From the UHGV virus genome UHGV-1370948: a stretch of DNA of 64,000 bases, one strand, 5' to 3'. Positions 4,843 through 59,872 of this stretch are shown here, one piece after another (within the stretch, counting starts at the first letter, position 1; the number at the start of each line of letters is the position of its first letter). The position numbers and the translations under genes were made by a program. The DNA comes from a virus. The notes beneath the pieces were generated by a model. It was not told the DNA's origin, ran no database searches, and worked only from the letters and a program-made list of their open reading frames with translations.

Positions 4843-5583
4843 ATGGACAGATTATTAAACACACCAGACGGCGAAAAGTACGCGTTCATGCAGGAGATGA
4901 CAACCTCAGACATGGACAGATGGGTATCCGAAAACATTGGTCTCTCTCGCTGCTCAGGTGAGACGGAGTTGTTTGCGACAAAGTGGTTCGATTACCGCAA
5001 TATGCATCCGCTGGTTGCCACCTGTCTTTTCTCTGAAATCTATAAGATCGAGTACGCACGCATCATGCTGACTCACGGTCGCGACGACTTCCAGCGTGCT
5101 CCGTATCGTACCGGACTAAAGCGCGTCGCCTATCAGGATCACGGAATGGGGGTAAAAACCTCGCTGTGGCGTGCTCGCCAGTTTGCGGACAAGTATTGCT
5201 GTTCGTATGAGTATTACATCTCAACGATACTGAGCATCGCGGCGCAGCGCCTGTGGGCTAATCTCCCTCGCCCCCAGCATCTTTGGCAAGACGATCTTGT
5301 TGAGATATTTGAGCAGAAGCTTTCCCGCCGCTCTCAGATCCGCATCGATGACAGCATCTTCAGCTACCACAACATGCCGCAGTTGGTGGCCCCGGAAATG
5401 CAGAAAGATTACTGCATGTGGGTCATTAAGCACATTGACGCGATGAAGCCTTCGTTGCGTGTCAATGGTGTCCTGTCAGCCGTCTATCTCCGTCGTCTTA
5501 TCCCGGAAGCTGTGGCAGCAAAGCGGTATCCAAAGCTTATTCAGGATGCTCAAGGCTTGTATTTGAGCGCCTGCGAAGATTGA
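4843..5583 (+). CDS. hypothetical protein
   Basis: 246-aa ORF, precedes helicase. Confidence 0.4.
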   Translation: MDRLLNTPDGEKYAFMQEMTTSDMDRWVSENIGLSRCSGETELFATKWFDYRNMHPLVATCLFSEIYKIEYARIMLTHGRDDFQRAPYRTGLKRVAYQDHGMGVKTSLWRARQFADKYCCSYEYYISTILSIAAQRLWANLPRPQHLWQDDLVEIFEQKLSRRSQIRIDDSIFSYHNMPQLVAPEMQKDYCMWVIKHIDAMKPSLRVNGVLSAVYLRRLIPEAVAAKRYPKLIQDAQGLYLSACED

Positions 5584-5627: not shown

Positions 5628-6989
5628 ATGACCACTACCTCTTCAGCGCTTGAGACGCCTGTTCACACAGGACGACCGCTATCGGAAGAATTTGACGCTG
5701 GGTTTGAAGATCGCCTGACTGCGTACTACTGCCGAGACAGAGAGTTTCTGATCAGAGCCGGCGATCTGGTTCTCCCTGAGCAATTCTCCAACAAGGCAAA
5801 TGGATACCTGGTCAGCATTGTGGCCGGCTATTTCCGCTCGTACAAAAGCTCCCCGTCGAAAGAGTTCATCATCGACATGATTAAGGAGGCGAAGAAGCGC
5901 GGAAAGATTCGAGAAGAGTTCGTGCCTGAAGTCGTTAATGCGATGAAGCGTATTTTGACCGAGAAGCTGGAAGACACCGGCTACATGATTGACCGCGTCG
6001 TGACTTTTGCGCGTTCGGTTGCTTTTGATGATGCGTTCATCAAGGCGGCGGAGCTGAAGGAGAAAGGCGAGTTTGAGCGTGCGATGCAGGTCATGCAGAA
6101 GGTGGACATGGTCGGCGCATCCGATATGGATGACGTGTACAGCTTCTATGAACGTTCCGGCGAACGACATGAGCGTCGCGAATACGAGGCGTCCGATGAC
6201 TTCGTACCTAACAGCGTAACAACAGGCATTCCGTTACTGGATAAAATGCTTCACCAAAAAGGCTGGGGGCGTAAAGAGCTGGTTCTGTTCATGGGCTTCG
6301 CAAAATCGGGTAAATCGACGGCCATGGGTGAGTTCGGCATCAATGCCACGCTGAAAGGCTACAACGTCCTGTATGTCTCACTGGAGGTACATAAAGACAT
6401 CCTGTCAGATCGCTGGGACGCCCGTATCTCCGAAACAGAAATGTCAAAACTTATTGAGCGCCGCGATGATATTGCGGAAAAGCTTCGCTCTGTGGGTGCT
6501 GATGGGAAAATCGGAAGCATGTGGATTGTTGAGCGTCGCGCCAATACATTTTCACCTGCAGACCTTGACCGCTTACTCAGCAACATGAAAGTGAATGGCA
6601 TGATACCTGACATGGTCATTGTCGACTATGCGGATCTGATGCGTGCCACCACGCCAACCAAAGACCCGCGCAATGATGTGAAGGACATCTACACCGACTT
6701 ACGTGCTGTCATGGATAAGCACGATGTGGCGGGTATGACAGCGTCCCAGACCAACCGTGAAGGTGGTTCCTCTGAAGTTGCGACGATGATGCACGCCGCG
6801 GACAACATCGAGAAGGTGCGTATCTGTGACCTGATTATCTCAATCAACAAGACCGAAGAGGAAGAAGCTAAAGGCGAGGCACGTCTGTATTTTGCTGGTT
6901 CTCGTAACCAGAAAGGCGGCGTTAGTTTGCGAGTGCTTCAGGATCTGGAACAGATGCGATTCATTAAGCGAATCATTGACGTTATGTAG
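5628..6989 (+). CDS. DnaB-family replicative DNA helicase
   Basis: Walker A GFAKSGKST, Walker B MVIVDYADLM, RecA-like C-terminal domain. Confidence 0.75.
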   Translation: MTTTSSALETPVHTGRPLSEEFDAGFEDRLTAYYCRDREFLIRAGDLVLPEQFSNKANGYLVSIVAGYFRSYKSSPSKEFIIDMIKEAKKRGKIREEFVPEVVNAMKRILTEKLEDTGYMIDRVVTFARSVAFDDAFIKAAELKEKGEFERAMQVMQKVDMVGASDMDDVYSFYERSGERHERREYEASDDFVPNSVTTGIPLLDKMLHQKGWGRKELVLFMGFAKSGKSTAMGEFGINATLKGYNVLYVSLEVHKDILSDRWDARISETEMSKLIERRDDIAEKLRSVGADGKIGSMWIVERRANTFSPADLDRLLSNMKVNGMIPDMVIVDYADLMRATTPTKDPRNDVKDIYTDLRAVMDKHDVAGMTASQTNREGGSSEVATMMHAADNIEKVRICDLIISINKTEEEEAKGEARLYFAGSRNQKGGVSLRVLQDLEQMRFIKRIIDVM

Positions 6990-6999
6990 GAAAAATGAA

Positions 7000-7028
7000 G
7001 GCGTTCCAAAGCGGAACGCCTTAATTTC
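7000..7028 (+). terminator. rho-independent terminator
   Basis: ggcgttcc..ggaacgcc hairpin + T-rich. Confidence 0.5.
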
Positions 7029-7079
7029 AATACAGAAATTCAAGCTTTCTTTTGCTAATAAAACCACAAAAGAAAACAC

Positions 7080-8243
7080 ATGTACTGCCATATTAATCTA
7101 TGGCCGGCTAAATGCAAGGTTTATCAAATGTCAGAATTAAAAGAACTAATGAAAGAATTCGACTTTGAGCAGTGGCTTGATACAGAGGGGATCTCGTATC
7201 GTCGTGGCTCAAGGACTTCAAAGGGGCGTGAAGTCAACATCCGTGAATGTCCGTGCTGCAAAAGTAGTAAGTGGAAGGTTTACTTCAACCTGACTACTGG
7301 CCTTGGCAAGTGTTTCGCCGGTGATCACCCGGAGGAGGTGCAGTTTAACAAGCTGAACTTCATCAAATACCATACCGGCGAATCATGGCGCGGATTGCAG
7401 CGTTACATCCGCAACGAACTGATGCAGCAAGGCTGGCGCCCAAAAGAAGAAGAGATTGAGCTAAAGTCGGATGTTGAGCTGACGTCTGAAGTTATCCTGC
7501 CTCCACATTATCAGCTGCCAATTGAAGGCCAACTTCCAACGTATCTTGTTGATCGTGACATCTCCCCGGAGCTGGCGACCTACTTTGATCTGCGGTACTG
7601 CGTAGAGGGTACGCACGTTTATCTCGATGAGCGAAATGGACGACCGCACGTCCAGTCTTTCGATATGCGCATCTTGATCCCCATTTACGATTTGGACGGC
7701 AAAATGCGGACGTTTCAGGGGCGCGACGTTACTGGTGAGTCAGATCGTCGTTATCTCTTTCCAATATCACTGCCGGCATCTGGCAAGTTCCTCTACAACG
7801 GACACAATGCCATCGGGAAGCGCACTGTAATCGTTTCTGAGGGCGCTTTTGACGTTATGGGCATAAAGCGTGCTCTTTTTGCTGAGGAATCGCTGAGAGA
7901 GTATGTGGAGCCGATAGGAACGTTCGGTATGCACTTGTCCGGCACGCTGGATGGTGAAACCGAGGATCAGCTTGGCGCATTCTTGAGATTGAAGCAAAAG
8001 GGATTAGAGACGGCCGTCATGATGTGGGACTCCGAAAAACAGGCAATACACAACACGTTTGGCGCAGCCAAGCGATTAGCCGGCATCGGGTTGCGTGTGA
8101 AAATCGCGTGTCTCGGAGAGGAAGGCTTAGACCCAGGCGATGCGACAATCGAGCAGGTTCTGAAAGCCTACTATCGAGCGAAGCCATACACCAAGATGCT
8201 CGAAATGATGGCGAAACTACACGGTATTAAAGCACTTCTCTGA
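7080..8243 (+). CDS. DNA primase (zinc-ribbon + TOPRIM)
   Basis: CPCC..C zinc motif, TOPRIM VIVSEGAFDVMG. Confidence 0.7.
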   Translation: MYCHINLWPAKCKVYQMSELKELMKEFDFEQWLDTEGISYRRGSRTSKGREVNIRECPCCKSSKWKVYFNLTTGLGKCFAGDHPEEVQFNKLNFIKYHTGESWRGLQRYIRNELMQQGWRPKEEEIELKSDVELTSEVILPPHYQLPIEGQLPTYLVDRDISPELATYFDLRYCVEGTHVYLDERNGRPHVQSFDMRILIPIYDLDGKMRTFQGRDVTGESDRRYLFPISLPASGKFLYNGHNAIGKRTVIVSEGAFDVMGIKRALFAEESLREYVEPIGTFGMHLSGTLDGETEDQLGAFLRLKQKGLETAVMMWDSEKQAIHNTFGAAKRLAGIGLRVKIACLGEEGLDPGDATIEQVLKAYYRAKPYTKMLEMMAKLHGIKALL

Positions 8244-8305
8244 CCGTAAAAAAGATAAGCACTTACTTATCATTTTGTATAAGATTCATAAAAAAAGGAG
8301 AGCAC

Positions 8306-9217
8306 ATGTATATCAAGAGCATCGACGAAGCCGTCAGAAAAGCCATTAGCGAAGCGGCGCACATCTTTAAAGATGGAGATGTAGAACGGATAGTTAAAGA
8401 GGCTTGTGAAAAGGCGAATCAACGCATCAGCATTAAGATGCCTGTCACTATATCCACCCCTAACGAGCCTTGGATTTACATTTCGTCAACTTTAACGGCT
8501 GATCGGAACTTCGAGCTGTTCGTCATCGTCAACCTTACTGACGTCGCCGAGGACTATCTGAAGGCGAAGGTGTTCCAAGGTATTTTTTATGCAGGAAGCC
8601 CGCGGCCGGCGATGTCACTCTACGAGAAGTCGATAATGATAAAAGCCGAGGATTATGAATCATACGTCGGCCCTGCAGCGGTAAAAAACTTCGCTAACTA
8701 TATGCTGGAAAGCGGCGTCCTGCAGGCTCCAGAGTTTGATCGTGTCCTGCGCTCACTTAGGGCTACGATGACGACAGAAGTTGTCTCAATGCCGAAGATC
8801 CCTAAAATTGTAGATGATACACCAGAGACTGCTGCCATTACGGCCGTGCATTCGAGCGCATTCGAGACGCCAGGCTATTCTCGTGCCTTCTCACTTAAAG
8901 CACCTGGCGGCATCATTGACGCGATCCTAGACCAGAAGTCGTCTCAGGCAAAAAACCGTTTCAATGAAAGCATTGAAATGCAGCTCTTCAGCGAATACGA
9001 CGGGGAAATGGATGAGATTGAGTCGGTTAAGGCCGTGTCGAAGTGCTTCGGCGGTCTTTTCGCAAGACCTGGTGAAATGATTACCCGTCTTGGTTATGAC
9101 AAAGCTGCCATGCTCTCAGAAGGCAAAAGCTACGCTCTCGCTCACGTCCGTGAAGCGATAAAACATGCAGAAGTACACAGCCTCGTCGCGGAAAACCCTC
9201 TTTGGGGTTCTTGGTAA
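8306..9217 (+). CDS. hypothetical protein
   Basis: 303-aa ORF. Confidence 0.4.
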   Translation: MYIKSIDEAVRKAISEAAHIFKDGDVERIVKEACEKANQRISIKMPVTISTPNEPWIYISSTLTADRNFELFVIVNLTDVAEDYLKAKVFQGIFYAGSPRPAMSLYEKSIMIKAEDYESYVGPAAVKNFANYMLESGVLQAPEFDRVLRSLRATMTTEVVSMPKIPKIVDDTPETAAITAVHSSAFETPGYSRAFSLKAPGGIIDAILDQKSSQAKNRFNESIEMQLFSEYDGEMDEIESVKAVSKCFGGLFARPGEMITRLGYDKAAMLSEGKSYALAHVREAIKHAEVHSLVAENPLWGSW

Positions 9218-9301
9218 CAATCCCCTCGTAAAAAATCTTTCAAGCCTGCGCCAGAGCATTAGACTGGCGCAATGATAAGTAAACATTTACTATAAGTATC
9301 T

Positions 9302-9757
9302 ATGAAAACCAACTTTAGCAAATTTCCGTCAATTAGCGGCAGTAATAGCTATTCGATGCTGTGCGAGGAACTTCTAATCAACGGATCGCCGACGCGCTCT
9401 TCCTATACGGTGTGTCAGCACACCGTACTGGCATTTAAAGAGAATCGACTCCCGCCTGGTTCATTCGATTCGTGCGCGACAGCCATTCGTGCCGGCAAGT
9501 GTCGTGCGGTCAAGATGATGTTGGAAGAAGTTAAAACAGGCGAGCGGATTTACTTCATCGATGGCCTCGAAGAGATGCGTAAGCTGAGAGAGGAAATTGA
9601 GAGTCGTGCAGCTGAAAGCGCAACGCGCAACAAGCGTGCTGCGACGTTTGGCTCAAGAGTGACGCCAAAGCCGGAAATCAAAAAACCAACCGTTCTCGTC
9701 GACATTTACGCCGAAGCGGTAAACGCAGAAGTTAATAAAACAGAGGAAAACACATGA
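9302..9757 (+). CDS. hypothetical protein
   Basis: 151-aa ORF, palindromic motif abuts start. Confidence 0.4.
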   Translation: MKTNFSKFPSISGSNSYSMLCEELLINGSPTRSSYTVCQHTVLAFKENRLPPGSFDSCATAIRAGKCRAVKMMLEEVKTGERIYFIDGLEEMRKLREEIESRAAESATRNKRAATFGSRVTPKPEIKKPTVLVDIYAEAVNAEVNKTEENT

Positions 9758-10224
9758 GTCAGTTCGAGCCACAAGTAGGCCAAGTATGCCAGATGATCTA
9801 CACTACCGCGGACGTTCCGCAATGGATTAATTGCTTGCCAAAGGCAGCATCGTCTCATGGTATTGCCGTGAGCATTGACGTTGTCAACGAAGGTGAAAGA
9901 ACACTCTGGTTCGACAGCTTCCAGATTAACCGCAACATCGTTTTCCGCCCGATCGTTCCTGAATGTAAGCTGTGGGCCGCTAAGGACTCTGACGACGTCT
10001 ACGAGATGGTGTGCCTTAGCAACGTGCTTACCGCCAAGCCCGGTTTCCCTTTGACTGTCATTTTCAAAAACAAAGAAAATGAGATTTTCTCCATGGACGC
10101 CGTCGATTTTCTTGATGCCTACGAACCAAAACCGAGTGATCTACCGATGGTAGAGCAAAGCGAACAGTGCGACATCCTCGATTCTCAGGATGAGCCTGTC
10201 GTTGTTGCGGGAGAGCTTCAATAA
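9754..10224 (+). CDS. hypothetical protein
   Basis: 156-aa ORF, ATGA coupling. Confidence 0.4.
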   Translation: MSQFEPQVGQVCQMIYTTADVPQWINCLPKAASSHGIAVSIDVVNEGERTLWFDSFQINRNIVFRPIVPECKLWAAKDSDDVYEMVCLSNVLTAKPGFPLTVIFKNKENEIFSMDAVDFLDAYEPKPSDLPMVEQSEQCDILDSQDEPVVVAGELQ

Positions 10225-11552
10225 TGGAAAAGTTGATTGCTCTGCGTGGAAAATTAGACGCCATTAAAGCTATGGGAACCAATGCCAAAAAAGTCGCCCT
10301 GGCTGAGCTGAACGAGTTTGAGCAAAGCATGGTGTCAATGATGCTCAACCCGTTCATCCGATTCGGGGTGAAGAAATACAGCGTCGCGGAGCCAGCGCTG
10401 GAGAATAAAATCCCTGATGAAGACGCTATCGATATTCTCAACTCCCTGGCCAGCCGTAAGCTCACTGGTAACAGCGCTATTGCGATGGTGGAGCAAGCTA
10501 TTTCAGACATGACAGAGGAAGGGCAAGACGTGTTCCGCCGCTTCCTGATTAAAGATCCGAAGGCCGGCATCGGTATTAGCCTGTGCAATAAAATCTTCGA
10601 CAACCCGATTCCGGTGTTCGAGGTTCAGCTGGCGACGTCGTACAAAGAAAAAGGCGACAAGTACCCGTTCAAGGAAAACCCGAAAGCCAAGTTCCCGATG
10701 ATTGCCAGCCTCAAGCTGGACGGGATGCGCGTCATTGCCGAAGTCATCGTTGACGAGGCAGAGGTTAACTTCCTGTCTCGTACCGGCAACCCGGTAACGT
10801 CTCTCGACCATCTGAAGCCAGCGGTATTAGATTTGGCGCGTATGACGCCGCATAAGCACATCTTCTTTGATGGCGAAGCGACGGCCGGCTCGTTCAACGA
10901 TTCCATCTCAGCGCTGCGTAAAAAAGGCGTATCAGCTATTGGCGCCGTATTCCACGTCTTCGATTACTTCTTGCCGGAATGGAAAGCCATTGCCAAAACC
11001 AAGGAGTACAAGAAAGAAGGCCGCAAGTTAAAAGACCGCCATATCGACTTGTGCAGCTGGACAAACTGGAAGAGCCGCCCGGACAGTCAGTACAAAGGCG
11101 ACGTGCGTTTGCATGACTTCCAGTTAGTACATAGTCATAAAGAGTTTATCGACTTGTTCATGGCGGCTCTGGACGCCAACGAAGAAGGCTATATGGCGAA
11201 AGATCCGTTCTCCGTTTACGAGTTTAAGCGCACCAAGAGCTGGTGGAAGATGAAGGACGAGATCGAAGCTGACGGTGAGATTATCGGCTTCAAGCCAGGT
11301 AAAGAGGATTCGGCATTCGCCCACACTCTCGGCTCGGTAACTATTCGCCTGGAGAACGGTGTTGAGGTCGAGGCATCGGGCATTAAGCACATGTACCTGG
11401 ATGAGATCTGGAACAACCAGGACAAGTACATCGGGCGCATCGTGAAGGTCAATGCCCACGAAGAGACGCCAGACGGCAGCTTGCGTCACCCTCGTCTGAA
11501 ATGGCCGTCCTGTCTGCGTGACACTGAAGACCGCATAGGGGATAAGGAATGA
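10224..11552 (+). CDS. ATP-dependent DNA ligase
   Basis: Motif I KLDGMR (KxDGxR), 442 aa. Confidence 0.8.
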   Translation: MEKLIALRGKLDAIKAMGTNAKKVALAELNEFEQSMVSMMLNPFIRFGVKKYSVAEPALENKIPDEDAIDILNSLASRKLTGNSAIAMVEQAISDMTEEGQDVFRRFLIKDPKAGIGISLCNKIFDNPIPVFEVQLATSYKEKGDKYPFKENPKAKFPMIASLKLDGMRVIAEVIVDEAEVNFLSRTGNPVTSLDHLKPAVLDLARMTPHKHIFFDGEATAGSFNDSISALRKKGVSAIGAVFHVFDYFLPEWKAIAKTKEYKKEGRKLKDRHIDLCSWTNWKSRPDSQYKGDVRLHDFQLVHSHKEFIDLFMAALDANEEGYMAKDPFSVYEFKRTKSWWKMKDEIEADGEIIGFKPGKEDSAFAHTLGSVTIRLENGVEVEASGIKHMYLDEIWNNQDKYIGRIVKVNAHEETPDGSLRHPRLKWPSCLRDTEDRIGDKE

Positions 11553-12407: not shown

Positions 12408-12914
12408 ATGGAAGTCGACATTGTGGGAAGAAAGATACCAACACAAGAACGAGTTAGACATTTGTTTCGCTACGATAGAGATACAGGGGGGTTATTTTGG
12501 AATAACCCCACATCTCCAAGAGTGAAGCCTGGTGATGAAATCACCTATGTAAATGGTGGTTATCTCAAGGTTAAGTTTGATGGTCAGTTGCATTTGGCTC
12601 ATCGGGTTATGTGGCTATACGAAACAGGTCACTGGCCGCGCTACCCAAAAGAGTTGGTTGACCATAAGGACTTGAACAAATTGAACAACATATTTTCTAA
12701 TTTCAGGTTAACTGACCATGCTGGAAATCAGCACAACAGGCCACTGAATAGAAATAGTTCAACTGGGTATAAGGGGGTAACTCTCCGCAATGGAAAATAT
12801 CTCGCGCAAGGCCAGAGTTGCGGGAAGAAATTCTTCTTGGGGTCTTTTTCGACACCAGAGGCTGCGAGTGAAGCGTATGAGATTTTTGTCTCTGAGAGAC
12901 GTTCTCTTAGATAG
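12408..12914 (+). CDS. HNH homing endonuclease with AP2 DNA-binding domain
   Basis: HNH core VDHKDLNKLNNIFSNFRL; AP2-like GYKGVTLRNGKYLAQ. Confidence 0.65.
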   Translation: MEVDIVGRKIPTQERVRHLFRYDRDTGGLFWNNPTSPRVKPGDEITYVNGGYLKVKFDGQLHLAHRVMWLYETGHWPRYPKELVDHKDLNKLNNIFSNFRLTDHAGNQHNRPLNRNSSTGYKGVTLRNGKYLAQGQSCGKKFFLGSFSTPEAASEAYEIFVSERRSLR

Positions 12915-30660: not shown

Positions 30661-30841
30661 AGGTTGCTTTGGCTCAGCATTGACAGCCTCGGAAAAAAGC
30701 GAGATCTGCGCCCGATGTGGTGACAGATCTCGCTGTCATGATGAAGCCCGTAAAAACATTGAGGCTATGTTTGGGAAGTTTGTCGGATTCCCGATTGACA
30801 GCGTTAAAAATAAAAAAAGAACCACGAAGGAAAGCACATGA
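30653..30841 (+). CDS. small Cys-rich (zinc-ribbon-like) protein
   Basis: CxxC..C.H pattern, ATGA-coupled to dnaE part 1. Confidence 0.25.
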   Translation: MNKGCFGSALTASEKSEICARCGDRSRCHDEARKNIEAMFGKFVGFPIDSVKNKKRTTKEST

Positions 30842-33210
30842 AGGCATTAATGGTACGCACCGATTTTTCTCTTGGTGAATCGGCGCTGAAAGCAAGCCGC
30901 GTAGCGAAGGCTGCGAAAGAGTTAGGTTATTCAGCCATTATCAGCGCAGACACAATGAGTCTGGCTTCAATCATCCCGCTGCAGCAGTCGGCTGGTGATG
31001 ACCTGGCTGTTATTTGCGGCGTCCGTCTGGTCATTAGTGACAATCCGCTTTATGAAGGCATGGTCAGAAAAGCCAAAGAGGAAGGTACAGAGATTCCGGT
31101 ATGCAAGCCTGGTCGTCTGTACAGCTTCACAGCGTTGATAAAGAACGATGAAGGGTATAAAGATCTGTGTGAGCTGATGACGTTGGGCAACCGCCGCGAA
31201 CAGTTTTACTTTTTCCCGCGCATCTCGTTGGAGCAGCTGGCCGAAACGTATTCAAAGGGCAACATCCTTCTACTGACGTCTGATCGCGATAGCATATTTC
31301 ATCGGCAGGACTTCGTTAAAATCCTGACTAAATTGCTGGAGGTTGGTGGGCGTGGCAACTTCTACAGCGTTGTGTATCCGATTGCTACGCCTCTCTACGA
31401 TCAGTTGAACATGAAGGCGATGAAGGTGGCTAATGCGCTTAAAATCGCCCCTGTTGCGTTCTATCCAGCTTATTACGAGAAAGAAGAGGACGCAGACCTG
31501 CGCGACATTGCGCATATGGTTATCAATAACATCAAAACGGATCAGCCATATCGTTTTCACATCCCACACCAGCGCGACAACTCAATCCAGAACCGCAAGC
31601 ATTTGCTGGTTCGCTTGATGGAATTCTCGAAACGCATGGGTATCGAGGGTATTAGTTCCGCGATGGTTAACGAGACTCAGGACGAAATCATTGCGGCGTG
31701 CAGCTGGCGCTGGCATGAGATGCCGGTCAGTCTGCCAGTTATGGCGGAAGATGAGGGTGATTCGTTGACGCGAATGGCGGCAGAAGGATTGAAGCGTCGT
31801 TTAACAACGCTTGAATTTGGTTGGAAGCCACCAGCAGAGCAGTATCAGGTTTACATCAACCGTTTACGTTATGAGTTGAGTGTTCTGAAAAAGCTGGGAT
31901 TTTGCGGCTACTTCCTGATGGTTGAAAATCTACTGTCATGGGCGCGTAAACAGGATATCCCGGTCGGGCCGGGTCGCGGATCGTCCGCCGGTTCACTTGT
32001 TGCGTGGGCGATTGGGATCACCAACATCGACCCGCTACGCCACGGTCTCCTGTTTGAGCGCTTCATCAACCCTGAACGTCTGGATTTGCCTGACGCGGAT
32101 CTGGACTTTAGCCAGGCGCTCCGCCCCCGCGTTCTCGAATATCTTGAAGAGCATTACGGCGAAAAATATGTGGCTGGCATTCCAAACTTCTCTTATCTGG
32201 GTATGGCGTCGGCACTACGTGACACGGCACGTATCTACGGCGTGTCTACCGAAGATATGGCGGTATCTAAGCAGTTGAAGCAATTCGATGATGAGGGATT
32301 ATCTCTTGAAGAGACTCGTGAGCAGCTGGGCGCCCTCGACAAATACGCGAAAGCAAACCCGGAAGCATTCGACGCCGCGTGCAAACTCCAGTCACTGATG
32401 CGCAGCTATGGTAAGCACGCCGCGGGTGTCATCGTTTCTGGCGTACCACTGACTGAGCGAACACCAGTTGAATTACGCAACGGGGTGCGCTGTATCGCGT
32501 TTGACAAGCGTTTCTGTGAATCTATGGGGCTTATCAAGCTGGACGTGTTAGGGCTGGCTACGCTCGATCTACTGGCTCTCGCTAAACGCTACATCAAAGA
32601 GAACGAGGGGATCGACGTTAACCTCGACGCAATCCCTCTCGATGATAAACGCGTCCTTGAGGGTATGGCGTTGGGTGAAACAACTGGCGTGTTCCAGTTC
32701 GAGTCTGGCGGCATGAGAAACCTGCTTAAAAACCTTGGAAGCGGCATCAAACCAATGTCGTTTGAAATGGCCGTCGCCACTACCGCGCTATATCGCCCAG
32801 GCCCAATGCAGTCCGGCATGATGGATACCTACGTCAGCGTTGCGCGTGGTTATGAGGACGCTCACTCACTTCACCCAAGCCTTGACGAATTGACCAAAGA
32901 AACCAACGGGGTTTTGGTCTATCAGGAACAAATCATGAAAGCGTCGCAGATCCTCGCCGGCTTCTCTCTGTCGGAAGCAGATATGGTAAGGAAGGCGATT
33001 GGTAAAAAAGACATCGAGAAGATGAAAAAGATTGGTGCCGACTTTTCAGATCGTGCGCAGCTTGGTTGGTTGGAAGTCCAGACTGACGACGGCCAGATTG
33101 TCACTGTTCATCGCGCCGCGCTTCATCCGTGCTCTGATGGTAAGAAGCGCACTGTCGAGCAAGCCATGAAAGAAGATGCCGACATTATTGAATTTGACAC
33201 CTCTAAGTAA
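30838..33210 (+). CDS. dnaE: DNA polymerase III alpha (DnaE-type) N-terminal part: PHP + palm/thumb
   Basis: GPGRGSSAGSLVAWAIGIT and catalytic LPDADLDF motifs. Confidence 0.85.
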   Translation: MKALMVRTDFSLGESALKASRVAKAAKELGYSAIISADTMSLASIIPLQQSAGDDLAVICGVRLVISDNPLYEGMVRKAKEEGTEIPVCKPGRLYSFTALIKNDEGYKDLCELMTLGNRREQFYFFPRISLEQLAETYSKGNILLLTSDRDSIFHRQDFVKILTKLLEVGGRGNFYSVVYPIATPLYDQLNMKAMKVANALKIAPVAFYPAYYEKEEDADLRDIAHMVINNIKTDQPYRFHIPHQRDNSIQNRKHLLVRLMEFSKRMGIEGISSAMVNETQDEIIAACSWRWHEMPVSLPVMAEDEGDSLTRMAAEGLKRRLTTLEFGWKPPAEQYQVYINRLRYELSVLKKLGFCGYFLMVENLLSWARKQDIPVGPGRGSSAGSLVAWAIGITNIDPLRHGLLFERFINPERLDLPDADLDFSQALRPRVLEYLEEHYGEKYVAGIPNFSYLGMASALRDTARIYGVSTEDMAVSKQLKQFDDEGLSLEETREQLGALDKYAKANPEAFDAACKLQSLMRSYGKHAAGVIVSGVPLTERTPVELRNGVRCIAFDKRFCESMGLIKLDVLGLATLDLLALAKRYIKENEGIDVNLDAIPLDDKRVLEGMALGETTGVFQFESGGMRNLLKNLGSGIKPMSFEMAVATTALYRPGPMQSGMMDTYVSVARGYEDAHSLHPSLDELTKETNGVLVYQEQIMKASQILAGFSLSEADMVRKAIGKKDIEKMKKIGADFSDRAQLGWLEVQTDDGQIVTVHRAALHPCSDGKKRTVEQAMKEDADIIEFDTSK

Positions 33211-33280
33211 TAAGTAAAATGTGAAAACAAGTTGTTTTTTAGTTTCTGAAAACAACTTGTTTAATGACAAAGGAAAACAC

Positions 33281-34441
33281 ATGAAGATTACTAAAATCAT
33301 CTCAGAGAAGCCCGGACTCAGCGAATCAAAAGCAAAAGAGGTCTGGGATGCTTTCGAGAAATTCGGGTCGTATGGCTTTAACAAATCACACGCCGTGGCC
33401 TATACCGCAATCAGCTACCAGGCAATGTATCTGAAGACTCACCATCCGGCTGCATTCTTCGCCGCCGCACTGACAATTCAGGATGATGAAAAACACCGAG
33501 CTGTTGTAAAGGATGCACTGGCACGCGGCGTTATTGTGATGCCGCCAGACATCAATCTCTCAACTGACCGCATCGAAATAGTCGAACTGAAGGATGGCCG
33601 GGCGGCGCTATATGCCCCCTTCTCAGCTGTCAAAGGTTGTTCTGAAAAAGGCAGCTTAGCCATTATGCGTGCTCGCGAGCGTGTAGGTGGTAAGTTTGAG
33701 TCGCGAGCACAATTCAAGGAAGCGATAGAGGCCAGACTTTGCAATATCCGAGTTCAGGAGGCTCTGGAAGCCGTTGGTGCATTTGCCAGTATTGAGCCTG
33801 GCAGCGAACCGGCGATGGCAGAATCCCGCCGCAAGGCTCAATCAGAGCTGATGGGAAGCCTCATTATCGATGCGGTAAAAGTGAGTCGCCCGTTCGAGAT
33901 GAATCCGAAACGCCAGGCAGAAGTGTCGATGTTGATGGAAGAGCTGCGTAAAGAGGTCGGGGTGGGCGAAGATCTGGTTACTCCGCATATCGGCGTATCG
34001 CCAAAAATAATGATTATCCTCGACACAGCAAACGGCAACGATATCAGGACGGGGATCTTCATGGAGAACGGCTACGAAGATTTTAAGGCGAAAATGCTCG
34101 TTAATGGCGATCTGCGCATGAGCGAGGTGTACGTTACCGGCGTCATTAAGCAAGATAAGAAGTTGCCACTGTCCCGCGACGCAGAGAACACCTACATCGA
34201 GTTTATGAAGAAAGAGCTTGAGCTGGTTAAACCAACCTACGTCCTGACGTGTGGTCGCCTATCGGCCAGTCTCTTCAACGACAAAACCAAGGCAACGGAT
34301 TTGGTCGGACGTAAGGAATACTTTGGCGCAATGGACTTGACCGTGTTTTACGGATTCAATCCGGGCATACTTCACTTCAGACCGGAAGAAGGTGAGAAAT
34401 TGGAACTTATTATGGAAGACATTAAGGAAGCATTGTCATGA
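33281..34441 (+). CDS. dnaE: DNA polymerase III alpha (DnaE-type) C-terminal part: fingers/C-terminal domains
   Basis: FNKSHAVAYTAISYQAMYLKTHHPAAFFAA motif; own TIR AAAGGAAAACACATG at 33281. Confidence 0.8.
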   Translation: MKITKIISEKPGLSESKAKEVWDAFEKFGSYGFNKSHAVAYTAISYQAMYLKTHHPAAFFAAALTIQDDEKHRAVVKDALARGVIVMPPDINLSTDRIEIVELKDGRAALYAPFSAVKGCSEKGSLAIMRARERVGGKFESRAQFKEAIEARLCNIRVQEALEAVGAFASIEPGSEPAMAESRRKAQSELMGSLIIDAVKVSRPFEMNPKRQAEVSMLMEELRKEVGVGEDLVTPHIGVSPKIMIILDTANGNDIRTGIFMENGYEDFKAKMLVNGDLRMSEVYVTGVIKQDKKLPLSRDAENTYIEFMKKELELVKPTYVLTCGRLSASLFNDKTKATDLVGRKEYFGAMDLTVFYGFNPGILHFRPEEGEKLELIMEDIKEALS

Positions 34442-35576: not shown

Positions 35577-36554
35577 ATGTCCGCTTTAATGAACCTTCTG
35601 AAGAAAAGCCAAGAAGTTGCGAAAAACGCACGCGGCAATCGCGGGAACGATCTGCAAAAGATGCAACCAGGCGAAAACTACGTTCGCATCATCCTGAACA
35701 AAGACGACCCTGACAATATTCCATTCTCCCACAAGTACGGCATTCACTATGCCAAATCTAAAGGCGAAGATGGGAAGGACGTATACAGCGCTCATCTGTG
35801 CTTTCAGCATACCCATGATAAGCCGTGCGAAATGTGCGAAATGGTTATGGAAGCTAAAGCGAAGTACAAAGGCAACAAAGCCATGGAAAAAGTCATTGAC
35901 GATATGCGTGCCTCTCCGCGCATGGCTGTTGTCGGCATGTGGTCTCAGAAAGAAGACTTCAGCGACACCGACAAGACTTCTCTCATCGATATGCCTATGT
36001 CCGTGTTTGACGACCTGATGGACGCCATTATGCAGGATATGAACGATGAGATCGGCGAGCCGCTGAGCCGCGAAAAAGGTTACGCGTATCAAATTACTCG
36101 CACCGGCTCTGGTCTGGACACTGATTACAAAGTCAAACCGATGCGTAAAAACAAAACAGCCGTTCCGGCTAAGTTCTGGGATAACCAACCGTCTCTGGAA
36201 CAGTTTGTAAACCAGACCGATCCGACAAAACTGATGGCGACCTCCAAAATGATTGCTCGCGCGACCGGCATCGCACTGCCAGCGTCTATGGGTTCAAGCG
36301 CCGGCGCTCTGCCAACCCCAACCGGCAAAGCAGCTGCATCTCTTCCGGGCATGACCATTACCGGAGTTGATGACTCAACTGCCGAAGCCTCTTTGCTGGA
36401 TAAAGAAGTTGAATACGCGAAAGAAGCCGTATTCGAGCCAGAAGAGAAAGAGGTAAAAGAAGTAAAAGAAGCGCCAGCAAGCGAGCCAGCAGCTGAGCCG
36501 GAAAACGAAGATCTGGATGACATTTACGCGCAACTTAACGCGCTTTCAATGTAA
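35577..36554 (+). CDS. ssDNA-binding protein (T4 gp32-like zinc site, acidic C-tail)
   Basis: H-x-C..C-x-x-C cluster (HLCFQHTHDKPCEMCEM), acidic C-terminus EPENEDLDDIY. Confidence 0.45.
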   Translation: MSALMNLLKKSQEVAKNARGNRGNDLQKMQPGENYVRIILNKDDPDNIPFSHKYGIHYAKSKGEDGKDVYSAHLCFQHTHDKPCEMCEMVMEAKAKYKGNKAMEKVIDDMRASPRMAVVGMWSQKEDFSDTDKTSLIDMPMSVFDDLMDAIMQDMNDEIGEPLSREKGYAYQITRTGSGLDTDYKVKPMRKNKTAVPAKFWDNQPSLEQFVNQTDPTKLMATSKMIARATGIALPASMGSSAGALPTPTGKAAASLPGMTITGVDDSTAEASLLDKEVEYAKEAVFEPEEKEVKEVKEAPASEPAAEPENEDLDDIYAQLNALSM

Positions 36555-36572
36555 GCCAGCCGTTGATTTTAA

Positions 36573-36598
36573 AGGCGTCTTCGGACGCCTTATTTATT
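36573..36598 (+). terminator. rho-independent terminator
   Basis: aggcgtc-ttcg-gacgcct + T-rich. Confidence 0.6.
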
Positions 36599-36599
36599 C

Positions 36600-37577
36600 G
36601 TGGAGAACAATGCCGTGAACATTTTAATAATCGACGGAAATAGCCTCGGTTACTACCACCAGCAGCAACCAAAAAAACTCCATAGCGGCGATATGGAGAC
36701 CCACGCAGTGTTTGGTTTTATCACCAACATGCGCCGCTATGCTTCGCTTCTGAAGGCTCGACCAATAGTTCTGTGGGATGGTTTCAGCGATAAGCGTCGC
36801 GAGTTTTACCCGGACTACAAAGCCAATCGTGACGACAACGCAGAAATGAAACAGATGAAAGAAGGTTTTGCAGTCCAAAAGCCCTTCATCAAAAAAGCAA
36901 TCACCTCGCTGGGTGTTGATCAGATTACTGCAATCGACGGTGAAGCTGACGATTTGGCCGGAATTCTGAAGAAGCGTTATGTTGCGTCGAAAGACGTCGA
37001 GCACATCTACCTGTTAACCGCGGACTCCGACTGGATTCAGCTGGTTGACGAAAAGGTAACATGGGTCAGTTTGCGCGAGGATACTAAGCATAAGCGCATC
37101 AATATCGAGGCGTTCCCTGAGTTGACTGGCTACCCAACGCCACGCGGCTATCTGGAAGGTAAAGCGCTGCAGGGTGACAAGTCGGACAACATTCAGCAAG
37201 TCGGTGGCATTGGTGACAAAGGCGCGATGGATCTGATTAACGAGTATGGCTCCATTGTTACGCTGGTTAAGGGGATTTGCGATGGATCTATTGTCATGGA
37301 CAAAGGTCGCAACAAAACGGCAGTGAATAACCTGGCAAAGAACGCTTTCAATGAGAAAACCGGCTGTCGGATGCTTGAAGCGTTTATGCGGAATATTAAG
37401 TTGATGGATCTCATCGACACCAAATTCGCCCCGGAGAAGCTGGAGATTATTCGCGGTGAGCAAAGTCTGGAAGCATTTAAGCAAATCTGTATGCAGTTAA
37501 ATTTCCAGTCAATCCTCAGCGATCTGGATGTTTTTGTCGTGCCGTTCGTTAAGCGCTGCGGGTTGGTGGCTGAATGA
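36600..37577 (+). CDS. 5'-3' exonuclease / flap endonuclease (FEN, T5 D15-like)
   Basis: ILIIDGNSLGY N-terminal motif and GDKSDNI helix-hairpin-helix motif; GTG start. Confidence 0.8.
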   Translation: MENNAVNILIIDGNSLGYYHQQQPKKLHSGDMETHAVFGFITNMRRYASLLKARPIVLWDGFSDKRREFYPDYKANRDDNAEMKQMKEGFAVQKPFIKKAITSLGVDQITAIDGEADDLAGILKKRYVASKDVEHIYLLTADSDWIQLVDEKVTWVSLREDTKHKRINIEAFPELTGYPTPRGYLEGKALQGDKSDNIQQVGGIGDKGAMDLINEYGSIVTLVKGICDGSIVMDKGRNKTAVNNLAKNAFNEKTGCRMLEAFMRNIKLMDLIDTKFAPEKLEIIRGEQSLEAFKQICMQLNFQSILSDLDVFVVPFVKRCGLVAE

Positions 37578-37834
37578 TTGCGTCAATTATTACTGGAAAA
37601 TCCACTACGCCGACCGCGCTGGCGAAGGAGTTAGTCTTCACCTATGGCGAGTATGTCGTGTCTGATTTTAACGCGTGCATCGTCGGTCACAAAATCGCTC
37701 TGACAGCGCGTGAAGTAGATATCGTGAAAGGCCATATTCTCACCATCATTGAGCGATCCGCAAAAATGATGAACTGCGACACCATCACATTTAACCGTGA
37801 ACAAGCCGAAAAAGAAATCGGCTTAACTAAATAA
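37574..37834 (+). CDS. hypothetical protein
   Basis: 86-aa ORF. Confidence 0.35.
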   Translation: MIASIITGKSTTPTALAKELVFTYGEYVVSDFNACIVGHKIALTAREVDIVKGHILTIIERSAKMMNCDTITFNREQAEKEIGLTK

Positions 37835-37850
37835 AACCAAAGGAAAACAC

Positions 37851-38918
37851 ATGAAAAAGTCACCATTAGCAGTAGCCATGAAAAAACGTATCGGCGGAAA
37901 TGATGAGATCCAGAAAGTCGAGCAATGGCTGGACACCGGTTTTCCCCCGTTAAACGAAGCCGTTTCTGGTGATCTGGAAGGCGGTCTTCCTTGTGGGCGT
38001 ATTGTGGAGATTTTTGGACCTCCGTCTGCAGGCAAAACTTTCCTCGCAACCCGCGCGATGATTGCAGCGCAGAAGGTCGGAGGTATCGCCGTATTCCTCG
38101 ATCATGAAAACAGTTTTGACGTTGGTCTGGCTGAAGTTATGGGACTTCAATCTGATGAAGATGAAGGTAATTGGGTCTATAAGCAGCCTGACACCTTTGA
38201 GGATGCCATCGACTTGACCGGGCAAATCTTGTCTCTGGTTCGCAAGGAGAGTCTGATCCCAGCTGAAGCGCCCATCGTCATTGTCTATGACTCGCTGGCC
38301 TCAATGGTTCCGCGCCAGAAGTTCGAGAAGTTCGAGAAGATGGCGGATGGCACGGCCAAAGAGAAAGACGAGCTGAATATGAACGACAACACGGCACTGG
38401 CTCGCGCGACTTCGGCAAATCTCCCAACGCTGGCTAAGTGGGCGCAGAAGTACAATGCCTGCCTCATTTTCCTGAACCAGGTTCGTACAAAAATGGGCGT
38501 CATGTTCGGAGACCCTACCACTTCACCAGGCGGCGACTCCCCGAAATTCTACGCTTCCGTCCGCATCAAGCTGGGTGGCGGTCAGTTGAAAGAAGGCGGC
38601 GATCGTGTTGGTCAGCTGGTTAAAGCAGAGTGCGTCAAAAACAAGGTGGCGCCACCGTTCCAGAAATGTGAATGGAACTTCTACTTCGACCCTTCGCGTG
38701 GTCTGGACGTCGTAGAATCGCTTGTAGAGTACATGCTTGATAAGGGATACATTCCGAAGACGTCCACCGGGCGCATCGAGATTGGCGACAAGAAGTATAC
38801 AAAGTCCCAGATCGTCGATATGTACCGCGAGAAGGATTTGAGCGAAATCGTGAAGGCTATTAAGTCGATTCAGGCGAAGATGAAGTCAAAGGACGAATTA
38901 GAGCCAGCTGACGCGTAA
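37851..38918 (+). CDS. RecA-family recombinase
   Basis: EIFGPPSAGKTFLATRAMIAAQK matches RecA Walker A region. Confidence 0.7.
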   Translation: MKKSPLAVAMKKRIGGNDEIQKVEQWLDTGFPPLNEAVSGDLEGGLPCGRIVEIFGPPSAGKTFLATRAMIAAQKVGGIAVFLDHENSFDVGLAEVMGLQSDEDEGNWVYKQPDTFEDAIDLTGQILSLVRKESLIPAEAPIVIVYDSLASMVPRQKFEKFEKMADGTAKEKDELNMNDNTALARATSANLPTLAKWAQKYNACLIFLNQVRTKMGVMFGDPTTSPGGDSPKFYASVRIKLGGGQLKEGGDRVGQLVKAECVKNKVAPPFQKCEWNFYFDPSRGLDVVESLVEYMLDKGYIPKTSTGRIEIGDKKYTKSQIVDMYREKDLSEIVKAIKSIQAKMKSKDELEPADA

Positions 38919-41244: not shown

Positions 41245-41501
41245 TCACCGCTGACGGCATAGTGTACCGCTAACAGCATATCAATTACCGCTGGTAACAT
41301 ACATTGAGCCGCTGACAGCATATCCACAACCGCTGACAGCATACGAAATAAAAAAGCCCTCTATTCGAGGGCTTAAATTTGGTGTGAATAAACGATTCCA
41401 GACCTTCCTAATCACCGCTGACAGCATATCTAATAGTCAAATCACCGCTGGCAGCATACCATTTGCCGTTCACAGCATATATTGCACCGCTCAGAGCATA
41501 T
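41245..41501. repeat. nine direct iterons (consensus ~CACCGCTGACAGCATA) downstream of repA (incA-like)
   Basis: Copies at 41245, 41265, 41287, 41308, 41329, 41412, 41442, 41464, 41486; hairpin 41354-41374 splits the array. Confidence 0.8.
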
Positions 41502-42613
41502 CAAAGCAACTTCAGACCGTTACTAAGTATCTCAATTAGCTTTATATTCTCAGGCGTCAAATCTGCAGAAAGTTCAGCTATCTTCTTGATCATGTTTTGT
41601 TTTACGACGTCCAGCTCGCCGCTCTCTTGTGGCCCTTCCACTTGCTCTGCAGGCTTCTCAGGCTTCGACGGTTTCTCTTCACCAATGACTTTAAGTTTCG
41701 GGTTGCGTCCATGAATCTGAATAAATACAGAGCGACCACGCTTCACCTCTGAGTAATCGAGGTAGCCAAGCTCTTTAAGAGACTTCAGACCGTTTCGAAT
41801 GGTCTGATTTTGGGAGCTGATGCTTGAGCTATTCAGATTCAACCTCGCACGCAAACGAGCCAGAGATATTGGCGCCGGCCGCGCCGGAAGACTTTCAATG
41901 AAGGTGTATAGCGCCTGGGCGGTTTCTTTACGTGGAAGTTTGTTGATGACCTTCAGTTGGAGAAGAACTTTGTGGTCAAACCGGTATAGCTCTGACAGCT
42001 TTGGTTCGGCGTGAAATATGATGGTGTTATTTTTCTCATTGTAATCCACGCTATTCACCAGATGAACCATGAGCAGAGATATCTTGTTCGAGCCGTCCAC
42101 GTTCTTCTCTTCGTATGTGCGCTGGAACGAAAGCGTTGTGCGCATTATCTTCAGCAGGCTGTTCGTAATCCTGTCTCGCAGCGTCTTGCGTATCTGGGAA
42201 GATGGATACCCACAGAACTTGGCAAACTTCGTGATGCTTAGCTCAACGCGCCCACTGGCCTCCCCATACTCGGCAAGTGATCGGACGACACCAACCCACG
42301 TCTTGAAGTCGTGATCCATATCGAGACGTGGACCGGTTATTTTGATATCGGAATAACCCTCAGATCTCGCAACCTCCAGTTGCACCAGTTCTTTTGAGGC
42401 GTCTATCTGGTTGGAGTTATTTCGTTTACTATTCTTCGTGCCTTTGAGCGTGGGAACGAACAATCCAAGTCTCATCAACGCAATGGGTTGTACGGTATTG
42501 TTGCTGTTAGGGGTGAGGTCGCCTGTGAATAACGCCGGAACACTTTCGTCGATCGCGTCATCATCATCGATTAACGGTATGTTTTCTTTCTTCTTTTTTT
42601 TGCCTGTGGACAT
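41501..42613 (-). CDS. repA: iteron-binding replication initiator RepA (P1 RepA-like)
   Basis: NSNNTVQPIALMRLGLFVP and YTFIESLP segments recalled from P1 RepA; flanked by iterons on both sides. Confidence 0.65.
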   Translation of the reverse strand: MSTGKKKKKENIPLIDDDDAIDESVPALFTGDLTPNSNNTVQPIALMRLGLFVPTLKGTKNSKRNNSNQIDASKELVQLEVARSEGYSDIKITGPRLDMDHDFKTWVGVVRSLAEYGEASGRVELSITKFAKFCGYPSSQIRKTLRDRITNSLLKIMRTTLSFQRTYEEKNVDGSNKISLLMVHLVNSVDYNEKNNTIIFHAEPKLSELYRFDHKVLLQLKVINKLPRKETAQALYTFIESLPARPAPISLARLRARLNLNSSSISSQNQTIRNGLKSLKELGYLDYSEVKRGRSVFIQIHGRNPKLKVIGEEKPSKPEKPAEQVEGPQESGELDVVKQNMIKKIAELSADLTPENIKLIEILSNGLKLL

Positions 42614-55975: not shown

Positions 55976-56383
55976 ATGTATAGCGCTGCCGAAGAACTTG
56001 ACAGAAAAGTTTCAGAAACCCTTGTGGACATAATCAAAAAGCAGACTGGCGGTTTGATGACGACGAATGAGGCGAAAGCAGCCATTCATTCGGTGTTCTG
56101 TTCTGTCATGGGTCTGGTAGGCCCGGATGTCGCCGAACTTCTAGAAGAGGCAATGAATACGATAGAGAAGGAGCGACCGTCGCCGTTCCCTCTCTATCTG
56201 AAAACTGCCAATGGCGTTTATATCTCGGTAACGCCAGACCCTATGATCAGGAGAGTTTTCGTCAGGGTTATGGCTGGTGAATATCGAACAATGAATTACG
56301 AGTGCGAAAGCGCAAGCAGCACGATTAAAAAGGCACTTGAAGTGGTGCAGTTACTTGTCAAACAGGGTGCAAAACGACTATGA
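55976..56383 (+). CDS. hypothetical protein
   Basis: 135 aa, consensus TIR. Confidence 0.35.
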   Translation: MYSAAEELDRKVSETLVDIIKKQTGGLMTTNEAKAAIHSVFCSVMGLVGPDVAELLEEAMNTIEKERPSPFPLYLKTANGVYISVTPDPMIRRVFVRVMAGEYRTMNYECESASSTIKKALEVVQLLVKQGAKRL

Positions 56384-56922
56384 CAGTTGCAACAGGTGTG
56401 GATATTGAGACCACTGGTCTCGATGTTTACTCAGGTCATAAAATTATTGAGATCGCTCTTGTCTCATATGAGTTAGAGACCTCGCGGAAAATTCATGAAG
56501 TGTCGCTGAGGTTCAACCCACGGCGCAGCATTGACGCGAAAGCCCAGGCAGTCCACCACATCTCGCTTGAGATGCTGGCCGACTGTCCACTGTTCGAAGA
56601 TAAAGCCGCTGCGCTGGCTAAAGCATTGGCAGCGGCGGATGTGTGGGTCGCGCACAACGGTCGACAGTTCGATATCCCCTTCATCACCAAGCAAATGAGT
56701 GATTGCGGCGTAGAGCTACCGCAGCGTCCGCTGGTGGACACCATGGATGCGCGGTGGGCATGTGAGAACGGCAAGATCCCCCGATTACAGGAACTAGCCG
56801 TCGCCATGGGATTCGTCTATGACGAGGAAAAGGCGCATGGGGCGCTTTATGATACTGACCTCATGATGAAGTGTTTTATGAAGGCCAGAAACGATTACGG
56901 ATTCTTCCCAATACCTTCCTGA
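56380..56922 (+). CDS. DnaQ-like 3'-5' exonuclease (Pol III epsilon-like)
   Basis: Exo I DIETTGL, Exo II HNGRQFDIPFI, Exo III HGALYDTD. Confidence 0.75.
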   Translation: MTVATGVDIETTGLDVYSGHKIIEIALVSYELETSRKIHEVSLRFNPRRSIDAKAQAVHHISLEMLADCPLFEDKAAALAKALAAADVWVAHNGRQFDIPFITKQMSDCGVELPQRPLVDTMDARWACENGKIPRLQELAVAMGFVYDEEKAHGALYDTDLMMKCFMKARNDYGFFPIPS

Positions 56923-59673: not shown

Positions 59674-59872
59674 ACACTCCTAGGCCGTTCCACTACTTTG
59701 CCAGACTTTCTAAAAAGCCCCATGTGGGCTTTTTCTCTTGACTAGCACCATCGCATCACTCACCACAGAAAAACGCGATCCCGAGCGTTACAGAGAAGAT
59801 CCCGATACGCCCTCTTGTCAGTTACAATTAATCCTGTAAAATAAGTAAGCATCTACCTATTTAAGTTATCCA

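Follow-up and report, generated by a model that had tools for sequence, protein, structure and literature searches.

The virus genome UHGV-1370948 was analysed over one strand of 64,000 nucleotides (the window). At 30838-34441, the gene of its replicative C-family polymerase (DnaE, the α subunit of DNA polymerase III) is presented as two separate genes. This raises the questions of whether the split is genuine, how it arose and whether both parts could still form one enzyme. The window is an SSU5-like Klebsiella phage-plasmid, and its DnaE shares ~66% protein identity with DnaE of Salmonella phage SSU5. The overall best explanation, held with fair confidence, is a naturally fractured dnaE that putatively still yields a working polymerase. 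It is very probable that the fracture is real, selected and associated with homing endonuclease genes (HEGs). The locus is composed of the following parts, all on the + strand:

30838..33210, +, dnaE part 1, 790 aa, with PHP, palm, thumb and most of the fingers (open reading frame list, Pfam)
33055..33207, +, C-terminal tail of part 1, residues 740-790, the N-side of a lineage-specific insertion
33208..33213, +, tandem stop codons TAA TAA closing part 1 (sequence)
33211..33280, +, intercistronic spacer of 70 nt, at the position held by HEGs in sister alleles
33224..33263, +, hairpin of two palindrome copies, 15 bp with an 8-nt loop (minimum free energy fold, covariation)
33267..33283, +, initiation cassette of part 2, ACAAAGGAAAACAC-ATG (exact consensus match)
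33281..34441, +, dnaE part 2, 386 aa from ATG, with the FNKSH fingers tip, a helix-hairpin-helix (HhH) domain and a domain resembling uracil-DNA glycosylase (UDG)
33281-33310, +, putative relic head MKITKIISEK of part 2 (sequence)
33377-33409, +, fingers motif FNKSHAVAYTA of part 2, with FNKSH at 33377-33391 (sequence)
33527-33796, +, HhH domain of part 2 (Pfam HHH_6)
33839-33856, +, clamp-binding-like QSELMG of part 2, with Q187 and L190 conserved to at least 90%
33893..34438, +, family-4 UDG-like C-terminal fold of part 2 (Foldseek, phmmer)

A preliminary description of the window had proposed a C-family polymerase in two genuine genes, with a first part of 790 aa containing PHP, palm, thumb and several quoted motifs. 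Both open reading frames (ORFs) were found, and Pfam assigned DnaE domains to them. Part 1 matched PHP (PF02811, E 2.4e-11), DNA_pol3_alpha (PF07733, E 5e-72) and DNA_pol3_finger (PF17657, E 7e-50). Part 2 matched HHH_6 (PF14579, E 1.4e-12) and, weakly, a UDG model. In part 1, GRGSSAGSLVAW was located at 31972-32007 and the catalytic Asp motifs of the palm at 32092-32109 (DADLDF) and 32536-32556 (KLDVLGL). Thus, PHP, palm with catalytic Asp, thumb and fingers of the C family are all present, with FNKSH and HhH contributed by part 2. The mechanically called ORF of part 2 opens at GTG 33221, upstream of ATG 33281. The latter is supported as the true start because an exact copy of the 17-nt start cassette ACAAAGGAAAACACATG lies at 33267-33283; this cassette occurs at 16 sites in the window, with 0.33 expected. 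The proposed start and FNKSHAVAYTA motif of part 2 stood; its length from the ATG is 386 aa (387 in the preliminary description), and its canonical C-terminal domains had to be given up (see below). The two reading frames differ and stops close every frame over the spacer, so a joining of the halves by simple frameshifting was rejected. A frameshift artefact, already discounted in the preliminary description, is equally contradicted by the stop, the 70-nt spacer and part 2's own ribosome-binding site and start.

The arrangement is widely shared. In 29 independent Klebsiella plasmid assemblies, exactly 3604 nt align across the locus with 80-100% identity and the same layout, and 30838-34441 is 100% identical to pKqq_SB1124_3 of Klebsiella quasipneumoniae (NZ_CP084809.1). 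The protein clusters of part 1 and part 2 comprise 383 and 247 members, respectively. Compared with an 81%-identical K. oxytoca allele, in which both ORFs are intact, dN/dS was 0.036 for part 1 and 0.023 for part 2 at dS >1.5. Given this conservation, the intact ORFs and the low dN/dS, the split is old, inherited and selected, and neither an artefact nor a pseudogene. An assembly error, a nonsense mutation or a decaying gene would find support in the lack of RefSeq proteins for the two halves in the near-identical plasmid, an indication that PGAP treats both as pseudogenes. It would have to be reconciled with identical architecture in the 29 assemblies and in hundreds of cluster members, with dN/dS of 0.02-0.04 over saturated dS, with covariation in the spacer and with the same break in alleles down to 31% identity. 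It is refuted by these comparisons, and its probability is practically negligible.

Megablast of the locus against the phage collection gave no match, so protein-level and plasmid searches were needed. The preliminary description had suggested comparing fused and split forms in related genomes, and both were indeed present. Four states of the junction could be distinguished. Fused genes without an insertion were found in P0214 and P0215 (both 1118 aa) and in an Acinetobacter locus (L009). In such alleles the distance from GKK to FNKSH is 46 residues, as in E. coli. Fused genes with an insertion of ~55-60 aa are carried by SSU5, Cyrano and Xenorhabdus, and the distance rises to 93-101 residues. 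Alleles of the third state are split by a free-standing HNH endonuclease gene (L003, L006, L007, L008, L012, L014 and L015). These HEGs belong to two families. Family A combines NUMOD4 with HNH_3 (p4727, K. grimontii, Acinetobacter with 44% identity, L014 and L015). Family B combines a helix-turn-helix with HNH (E. coli L007 and L012, 42% mutually identical) and is unrelated to family A. The fourth state is a split with a spacer of 56-84 nt, found in the window and in L004, L016, L017, L018 and L019. No HEG is present at the break in the window, just the 70-nt non-coding spacer. In a spread sample of the 983 matching plasmids, ~28 were fused, 16 HEG-split and two of the window type. Every split allele, even those with identities as low as 31%, has its break at the same residue, and all stand-alone part 2 proteins begin with MKIxxI, 32 residues ahead of FNKSH.

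A neighbour-joining tree was built on the conserved core and midpoint-rooted. The six verified short-spacer alleles form one clade in it, into which P0199 also falls. On this comparison, the window belongs to a single clade that lacks the endonuclease and has a spacer of 56-84 nt left. Within the SSU5 clade, alleles split by a HEG and fused alleles with an insert are intermingled, with very short distances between them, and on the deep branches alleles with the putative relic and a HEG adjoin alleles without insert. L006 and SSU5 are 97% identical overall and 39% identical within the insert; the junction is also a recombination hot spot. Close relatives thus provide a comparative series of no insert, fused with relic, HEG-split and spacer-split alleles.

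Some junctions fall outside these states. L011 (3613-4986), a distant relative, holds three ORFs of 172, 95 and 184 aa without Pfam matches instead of a HEG, and therefore the fracture site can host other cargo. P0025 (391 aa), with NUMOD4 and HNH_3 at its N-terminus, shares 61% identity with part 2 across 59% of its length and could represent a fusion of HEG and part 2 or a miscalled gene. In L021 (685-3744) from a marine metagenome, dnaE is present as two same-frame ORFs without an insertion, which could reflect an in-frame stop, recoding or an assembly error. P0027/L021 was considered as a second fracture site and set aside, as the same-frame ORFs lie 18 nt apart with an in-frame stop.

The position of the insertion was determined by alignment with bacterial polymerases. 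SSU5 residues 315-739 align to Taq Pol III α 363-788, and residues 793-954 to 790-947. The insertion is thus a pure addition in a fingers loop, because the Taq alignment resumes directly at 790 after 788. It is missing from Taq α, E. coli α and the no-insert relatives. Part 2 aligns with residues 8-177 to E. coli α 731-897 and further to Taq 790-978, which upholds its homology to DnaE and, together with the part 1 alignment, places the break inside the fingers domain as previously described. The window halves were concatenated and modelled with AlphaFold2 (AF2) on a 50-sequence alignment. The model had a mean pLDDT of 86 and matched Pol III α (2hnh, TM 0.81; 2hpi, E 4e-56); part 2 was modelled with a pLDDT of 88. 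The insertion was predicted as a confident β-rich mini-domain, to which the part 1 tail supplies a β-β-β-α-β order (pLDDT 83-89) with strands at 744-749, 754-758 and 763-765, a helix at 773-778 and a strand at 783-784; a further strand of the mini-domain is at 793-800. Its sole low-confidence stretch, residues 786-788, is the gene break. As the break coincides with this loop, the first strand of part 2 would complete the module of the part 1 tail. The break is always in one loop of a ~58-aa β-rich module that is inserted between Taq α residues 788 and 790.

The module resembles a DnaE intein. A profile of 17 insertion sequences was searched against all PDB sequences and retrieved DnaE inteins, with 7qil (E 0.005) ahead of entries for Npu and Ssp; residues ~62-100 of the intein were the aligned part in all of them. 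With a larger tail-only profile of 26 non-redundant sequences, 7qil was found at E 5e-5, a gain of ~100-fold. Seven Npu-type chains followed at E 5-7e-4 and six Ssp-type chains at ~0.3, giving at least 14 distinct intein chains, and no natural non-intein protein scored below E 0.18. In hhalign, the insertion and the DnaE intein were paired with 87% probability (P 4e-6, 42 columns). None of 2000 shuffled inteins reached the real scores, and reversed sequences gave ~0. In the reciprocal direction, an intein profile scored 28 inserts of the family above all 1482 six-frame segments of the window, and its score rose in every pair compared when the part 2 head was added. The alignment with the Cfa consensus intein extends past the natural split site into the C-fragment, so that the gene break probably coincides with the split site of the intein. 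On these grounds, the insertion is probably what erosion has left of the middle of a DnaE-type split intein, reaching from block B up to the natural split site and including the first C-fragment strand as well. The part 1 tail would be a putative relic of the C-terminal ~45 residues of the intein N-fragment. This origin is judged likely, with a good deal of doubt left.

The doubt has several sources. The profile is short, and its top PDB match is a spurious designed TIM-barrel repeat; the designed TIM barrels heading the list are artefacts of a four-fold repeat, each single repeat having E ~22. Generic intein and Hint models of Pfam and NCBIfam did not match part 1 or the 17 inserts. The window's own copy is the most diverged, with 7.2 bits with the head and 3.3 bits without it, and a profile of three inteins failed to single out the window's tail among its six-frame segments. 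When the window tail was compared exhaustively with 1.84 billion proteins by phmmer, only family members and spurious repeat proteins came up and no genuine intein. No relative with a fuller intein was found, and a longer head resembling the C-terminal intein fragment (IntC) was looked for in the relatives, whose stand-alone part 2 proteins all have their start 32 residues ahead of FNKSH. Of ~137 intein residues, no more than ~58 would be left. The detectable intein-equivalent segment covers residues ~57-112 only, so that the six HINT motifs of the two intein halves are not represented. The order of events, with intein or HEG first, comes from the midpoint-rooted neighbour-joining tree only. 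The charge complementarity between tail and head, finally, was discarded as a family-wide rule. Every allele has an acidic part 1 tail, but a basic part 2 head occurs only in some clades, among them the window's.

The alignments show neither Cys1 nor block A, TxxH is not retained, and blocks F and G are missing along with the terminal Asn and the +1 nucleophile. The insertion opens with A-Q-x-G-W, the Thr position of block B is occupied by His and its His position by Glu or Lys, and the 10-aa head of part 2 has neither HN nor Cys. Since every residue needed for splicing is gone, no splicing is expected.

These data also bear on the other explanations of the locus. A HEG-associated fracture could be real and its module not derived from an intein, consisting instead of a lineage-specific β-module or of tails that the endonuclease cassette created or brought along. 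Tails derived from mobile elements are documented for Aeh1 NrdA (PMC3045599), and the missing Pfam and NCBIfam intein matches, the loss of all catalytic residues and an intein match spanning only ~40 columns would be in line with such an origin; moreover, the profile's C-terminal half amounts to a generic succession of helix and strand, to which designed TIM barrels correspond as well. It does not explain, however, why the natural PDB matches below E 0.18 are all DnaE inteins and gain ~100-fold with a better profile, nor the hhalign probability of 87%, the predicted order of secondary structure elements that fits an intein or the probable coincidence of the break with the intein split site. 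Furthermore, the module is also present in fused alleles without HEG. A non-intein module is unlikely on balance, though it has to be taken seriously. Protein trans-splicing as in cyanobacterial DnaE would join the polypeptides covalently, a thought invited by the layout as a fractured gene and by the way tail and head resemble the split DnaE intein in sequence. It is extremely improbable given that the insertion starts without Cys or Ser, that block A and TxxH are lacking, that there are no blocks F and G, no terminal Asn and no +1 nucleophile and that the part 2 head comprises ~10 aa compared to 36 for IntC. In addition, fused alleles retain the insertion in the mature protein.

A single chain might also be made by ribosome bypassing or reinitiation, with a gene-60-like hop from AAG 33205 to AAG 33284. 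The Lys codons on either side of the gap match, the take-off codon is followed by a stop and the gap contains a stable hairpin. The start cassette of part 2 is an exact consensus copy, though, and the same ATG must initiate independently where a HEG of 0.7 kb intervenes. The hairpin is 13 nt past the stop and not at the take-off codon, the spacer varies between 56 and 84 nt and L017 has no hairpin; bypassing is thus highly improbable. It is very unlikely, too, that the halves are independent, with part 1 as a self-sufficient core and part 2 as a separate factor, e.g. a UDG-like DNA-binding protein. This idea would agree with the GenBank name uracil-DNA glycosylase for part 2 and with its own start cassette and possibly own regulation. 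But the invariant FNKSH and the HhH domain, without which the Pol III α fold would be incomplete, are preserved in part 2, closely related fused alleles carry the same sequence in one chain and the catalytic motifs of UDG are lost.

For the fractured polymerase favoured here, the following course of events and division of labour is proposed. An intein in dnaE would have decayed to a non-splicing relic. The endonuclease would have been lost from the break, leaving the covarying hairpin and the consensus start site. Part 1 would supply PHP, the catalytic palm, the thumb and most of the fingers, while part 2 would supply the FNKSH fingers tip, HhH, the clamp-binding-like QSELMG and the UDG-like domain. 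The polymerase is probably a non-covalent heterodimer, in which the two parts could be held together by the relic hairpin, with its acidic tail and basic head, and by the interface in the fingers. Split-intein fragments are known to associate via an anionic region of the N-terminal fragment (IntN) and a cationic IntC (PMC11766414). The most far-reaching version of this proposal is put forward tentatively and has to be regarded as somewhat doubtful: a dead split intein kept as a ~58-aa non-covalent zipper between the two polymerase chains throughout a large phage-plasmid family, whose relic loop is still a homing site for two HNH families, while alleles cycle between fused, HEG-split and spacer-split states. 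If true, a natural intein has been exapted from a splicing element into a protein-assembly module, which would also be a ready-made orthogonal heterodimerisation tag. The relic, if correctly recognised, would mark an end state of intein decay, in which a dead intein is retained as an assembly module.

The spacer could contribute to the balance of the two parts. Its two palindromes, already noted in the preliminary description, were found at 33224-33238 and 33249-33263. The palindrome AAACA(A/G)nTTGTTT (AAACAAnTTGTTT) occurs at seven intergenic sites in the window (3435, 5595, 33224, 33249, 40087, 56971 and 62709), with 0.31 expected. Its copies are located 5-30 nt upstream of the conserved start cassette or of gene starts and are often preceded by CATAAG. 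The motif is conserved in elements ranging from Klebsiella to Acinetobacter. Since it is also found ahead of the junction HEGs of E. coli L007 (~3270-3285) and Acinetobacter L008 (~5275-5290), it is a family-wide gene-start element, and it is probably an operator or a phage promoter element. A scan of 32900-33500 for sigma-70 promoters and intrinsic terminators gave no hit, although a TTGACA-15 nt-TAAAAT arrangement was noticed by eye. A sigma-70 family factor is encoded directly upstream of dnaE in some relatives (L008 1445-2110, L014 560-1252).

In the dnaE spacer, the two copies pair into a 15-bp hairpin that begins 13 nt after the part 1 stop (z = -2.5 for the minimum free energy fold). 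Across four lineages, the 15 pairs are maintained with two compensatory and four wobble-preserving changes, and spacer folds of related lineages reached z = -3.8 and -4.1. L019 has a different hairpin of 12 bp and L017 has none. A possible outer helix of AUGUG (33219-33223) and CACAU (33278-33282) would mask some of the part 2 start codon, and a ribosome terminating at 33208 would open it. For this reason, translational coupling is inferred; the spacer hairpin and the start cassette would couple or balance the expression of both cistrons. The zipper and the coupling roles are each possible, at slightly less than even likelihood.

The locus has much in common with the fractured genes described by Dassa in 2009 (PMC2677866), among which are three DnaE loci. 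Adjacent halves in the same orientation, a replication enzyme as host and sister alleles with a HEG between the halves are found in both, and the flanks of the break are probably intein-like here, too. Fractured genes at a later stage have lost the HEG and retain a hairpin ahead of the C-terminal part (PMC2677866), which is comparable to the HEG-less spacer with hairpin in the window. In contrast to these genes, the window's intein would be a ~58-aa remnant lacking the five catalytic residues and blocks A, F and G, the HEGs are of HNH types rather than GIY-YIG or Vsr-like (PMC2677866), and fused alleles retaining the remnant exist.

Splits of essential replication genes into two cistrons are also known from gene 43 of Aeromonas phages 25 and 44RR and from nrdA of Aeh1. 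T4-like gene 43 is split by a seg HEG or by an untranslated spacer and is active as two chains (PMC2988022). Aeh1 nrdA is split by mobE, and its tails derived from the mobile element are essential (PMC3045599). As in the window family, a HEG occupies the break in one relative and a short untranslated sequence in another. The halves in those systems assemble non-covalently, and the tails at the break matter for assembly. The window differs from gene 43, a family B polymerase, in its C-family enzyme, its temperate phage-plasmid hosts, the intein-like module and the two HEG families at one site. The locus illustrates how division into two pieces can be tolerated by a replicative polymerase that is essential.

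With the cyanobacterial split DnaE inteins (Ssp, Npu; 1zd7, 2keq, 4kl5), the window shares the host protein, a profile alignment over ~57-98, a break that aligns to the split site and, in the window clade, an acidic tail and a basic head. Unlike in cyanobacteria, where the intein site directly precedes CFNKSH, the insertion lies 32 residues further upstream, the genes are adjacent instead of occupying separate loci, none of the catalytic residues is present and of the fold no more than the central part is represented. Searchable papers on SSU5-type phage-plasmids mention neither the polymerase nor homing endonucleases.

Compared with DnaE of E. coli and Taq, the window has PHP, palm, thumb, fingers and HhH with the catalytic Asp motifs, FNKSH and a clamp-binding-like motif. 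QSELMG is located at the position of the internal clamp-binding motif of E. coli. It differs in its two chains, the ~58-aa insertion in the fingers and the UDG-like fold in place of the OB and tau-binding domains. A Pfam search gave no match for the C-terminal OB fold (PF01336), and the C-terminal ~185 aa fold as a family-4 UDG. Foldseek matched the part 2 C-terminus to 1l9g (E 3e-10, TM 0.75) and gave TM values of 0.74-0.77 for 1l9g, 1ui0 and 4zbx. In phmmer, 1ui0 was found at E 2e-4, with the catalytic motifs altered from GEGPG to LDTANG and from HPA to NPG. The domain contains a single Cys and thus no ligand set for a 4Fe-4S cluster. It shares the α/β fold of family-4 UDG and lacks motif A (GE(A/G)PG), motif B (HP(S/A)) and the four Cys. 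The domain is conserved in fused and split relatives and may be a protein- or DNA-binding module. Its replacement of the OB and tau-binding domains suggests a non-canonical connection between polymerase and replisome. In GenBank, part 2 is named 'uracil-DNA glycosylase' or 'hypothetical protein'. Such labels and the apparent pseudogene calls constitute a systematic annotation problem that misleads analyses of gene content and typing. SSU5-like phage-plasmids were common in the plasmid collection searched, and many came from clinical isolates of Enterobacterales and Acinetobacter.

Beyond dnaE, the window contains these features:

56380..56922, +, DEDD (DnaQ-like) 3'-5' exonuclease, candidate proofreader (Pfam RNase_T, E 4e-24)
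5628-11552 and 35577-38918, replication and recombination module with DnaB-like helicase, DnaG-like primase, ATP-dependent ligase, gp32-like single-stranded DNA-binding protein, FEN and RecA
41501-42613, -, Rep3-type plasmid initiator
17485-23503, type I restriction-modification system

The exonuclease, which the preliminary description had named as DnaQ-like, carries a 3'-5' exonuclease annotation in the near-identical plasmid as well. Other parts of that description need revision. Its T7-type helicase/primase turned out to be separate DnaB-like and DnaG-like genes and not a fused gp4. The alleged unusual mosaic is what SSU5-like phage-plasmids normally carry as their replication module; hundreds of plasmids have it, and its synteny extends to distant relatives. 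The description also missed the cause of the break, whose site is occupied by HEGs in sister elements and falls within an insertion resembling a split-intein remnant. Among the annotated genes of the window, none for a sliding clamp was seen. A free-standing HNH_3 endonuclease gene with an AP2-like C-terminus is located at 12408-12914, between the ligase region and the genes downstream, and has no relationship to the junction HEGs (E 0.16). The window derives from a close relative of pKqq_SB1124_3 rather than from that very record, since outside dnaE it differs from NZ_CP084809.1 by ISKpn26, apparently missing from the window at ~59500-60500, and by small indels (1-29400, 18-nt offset).

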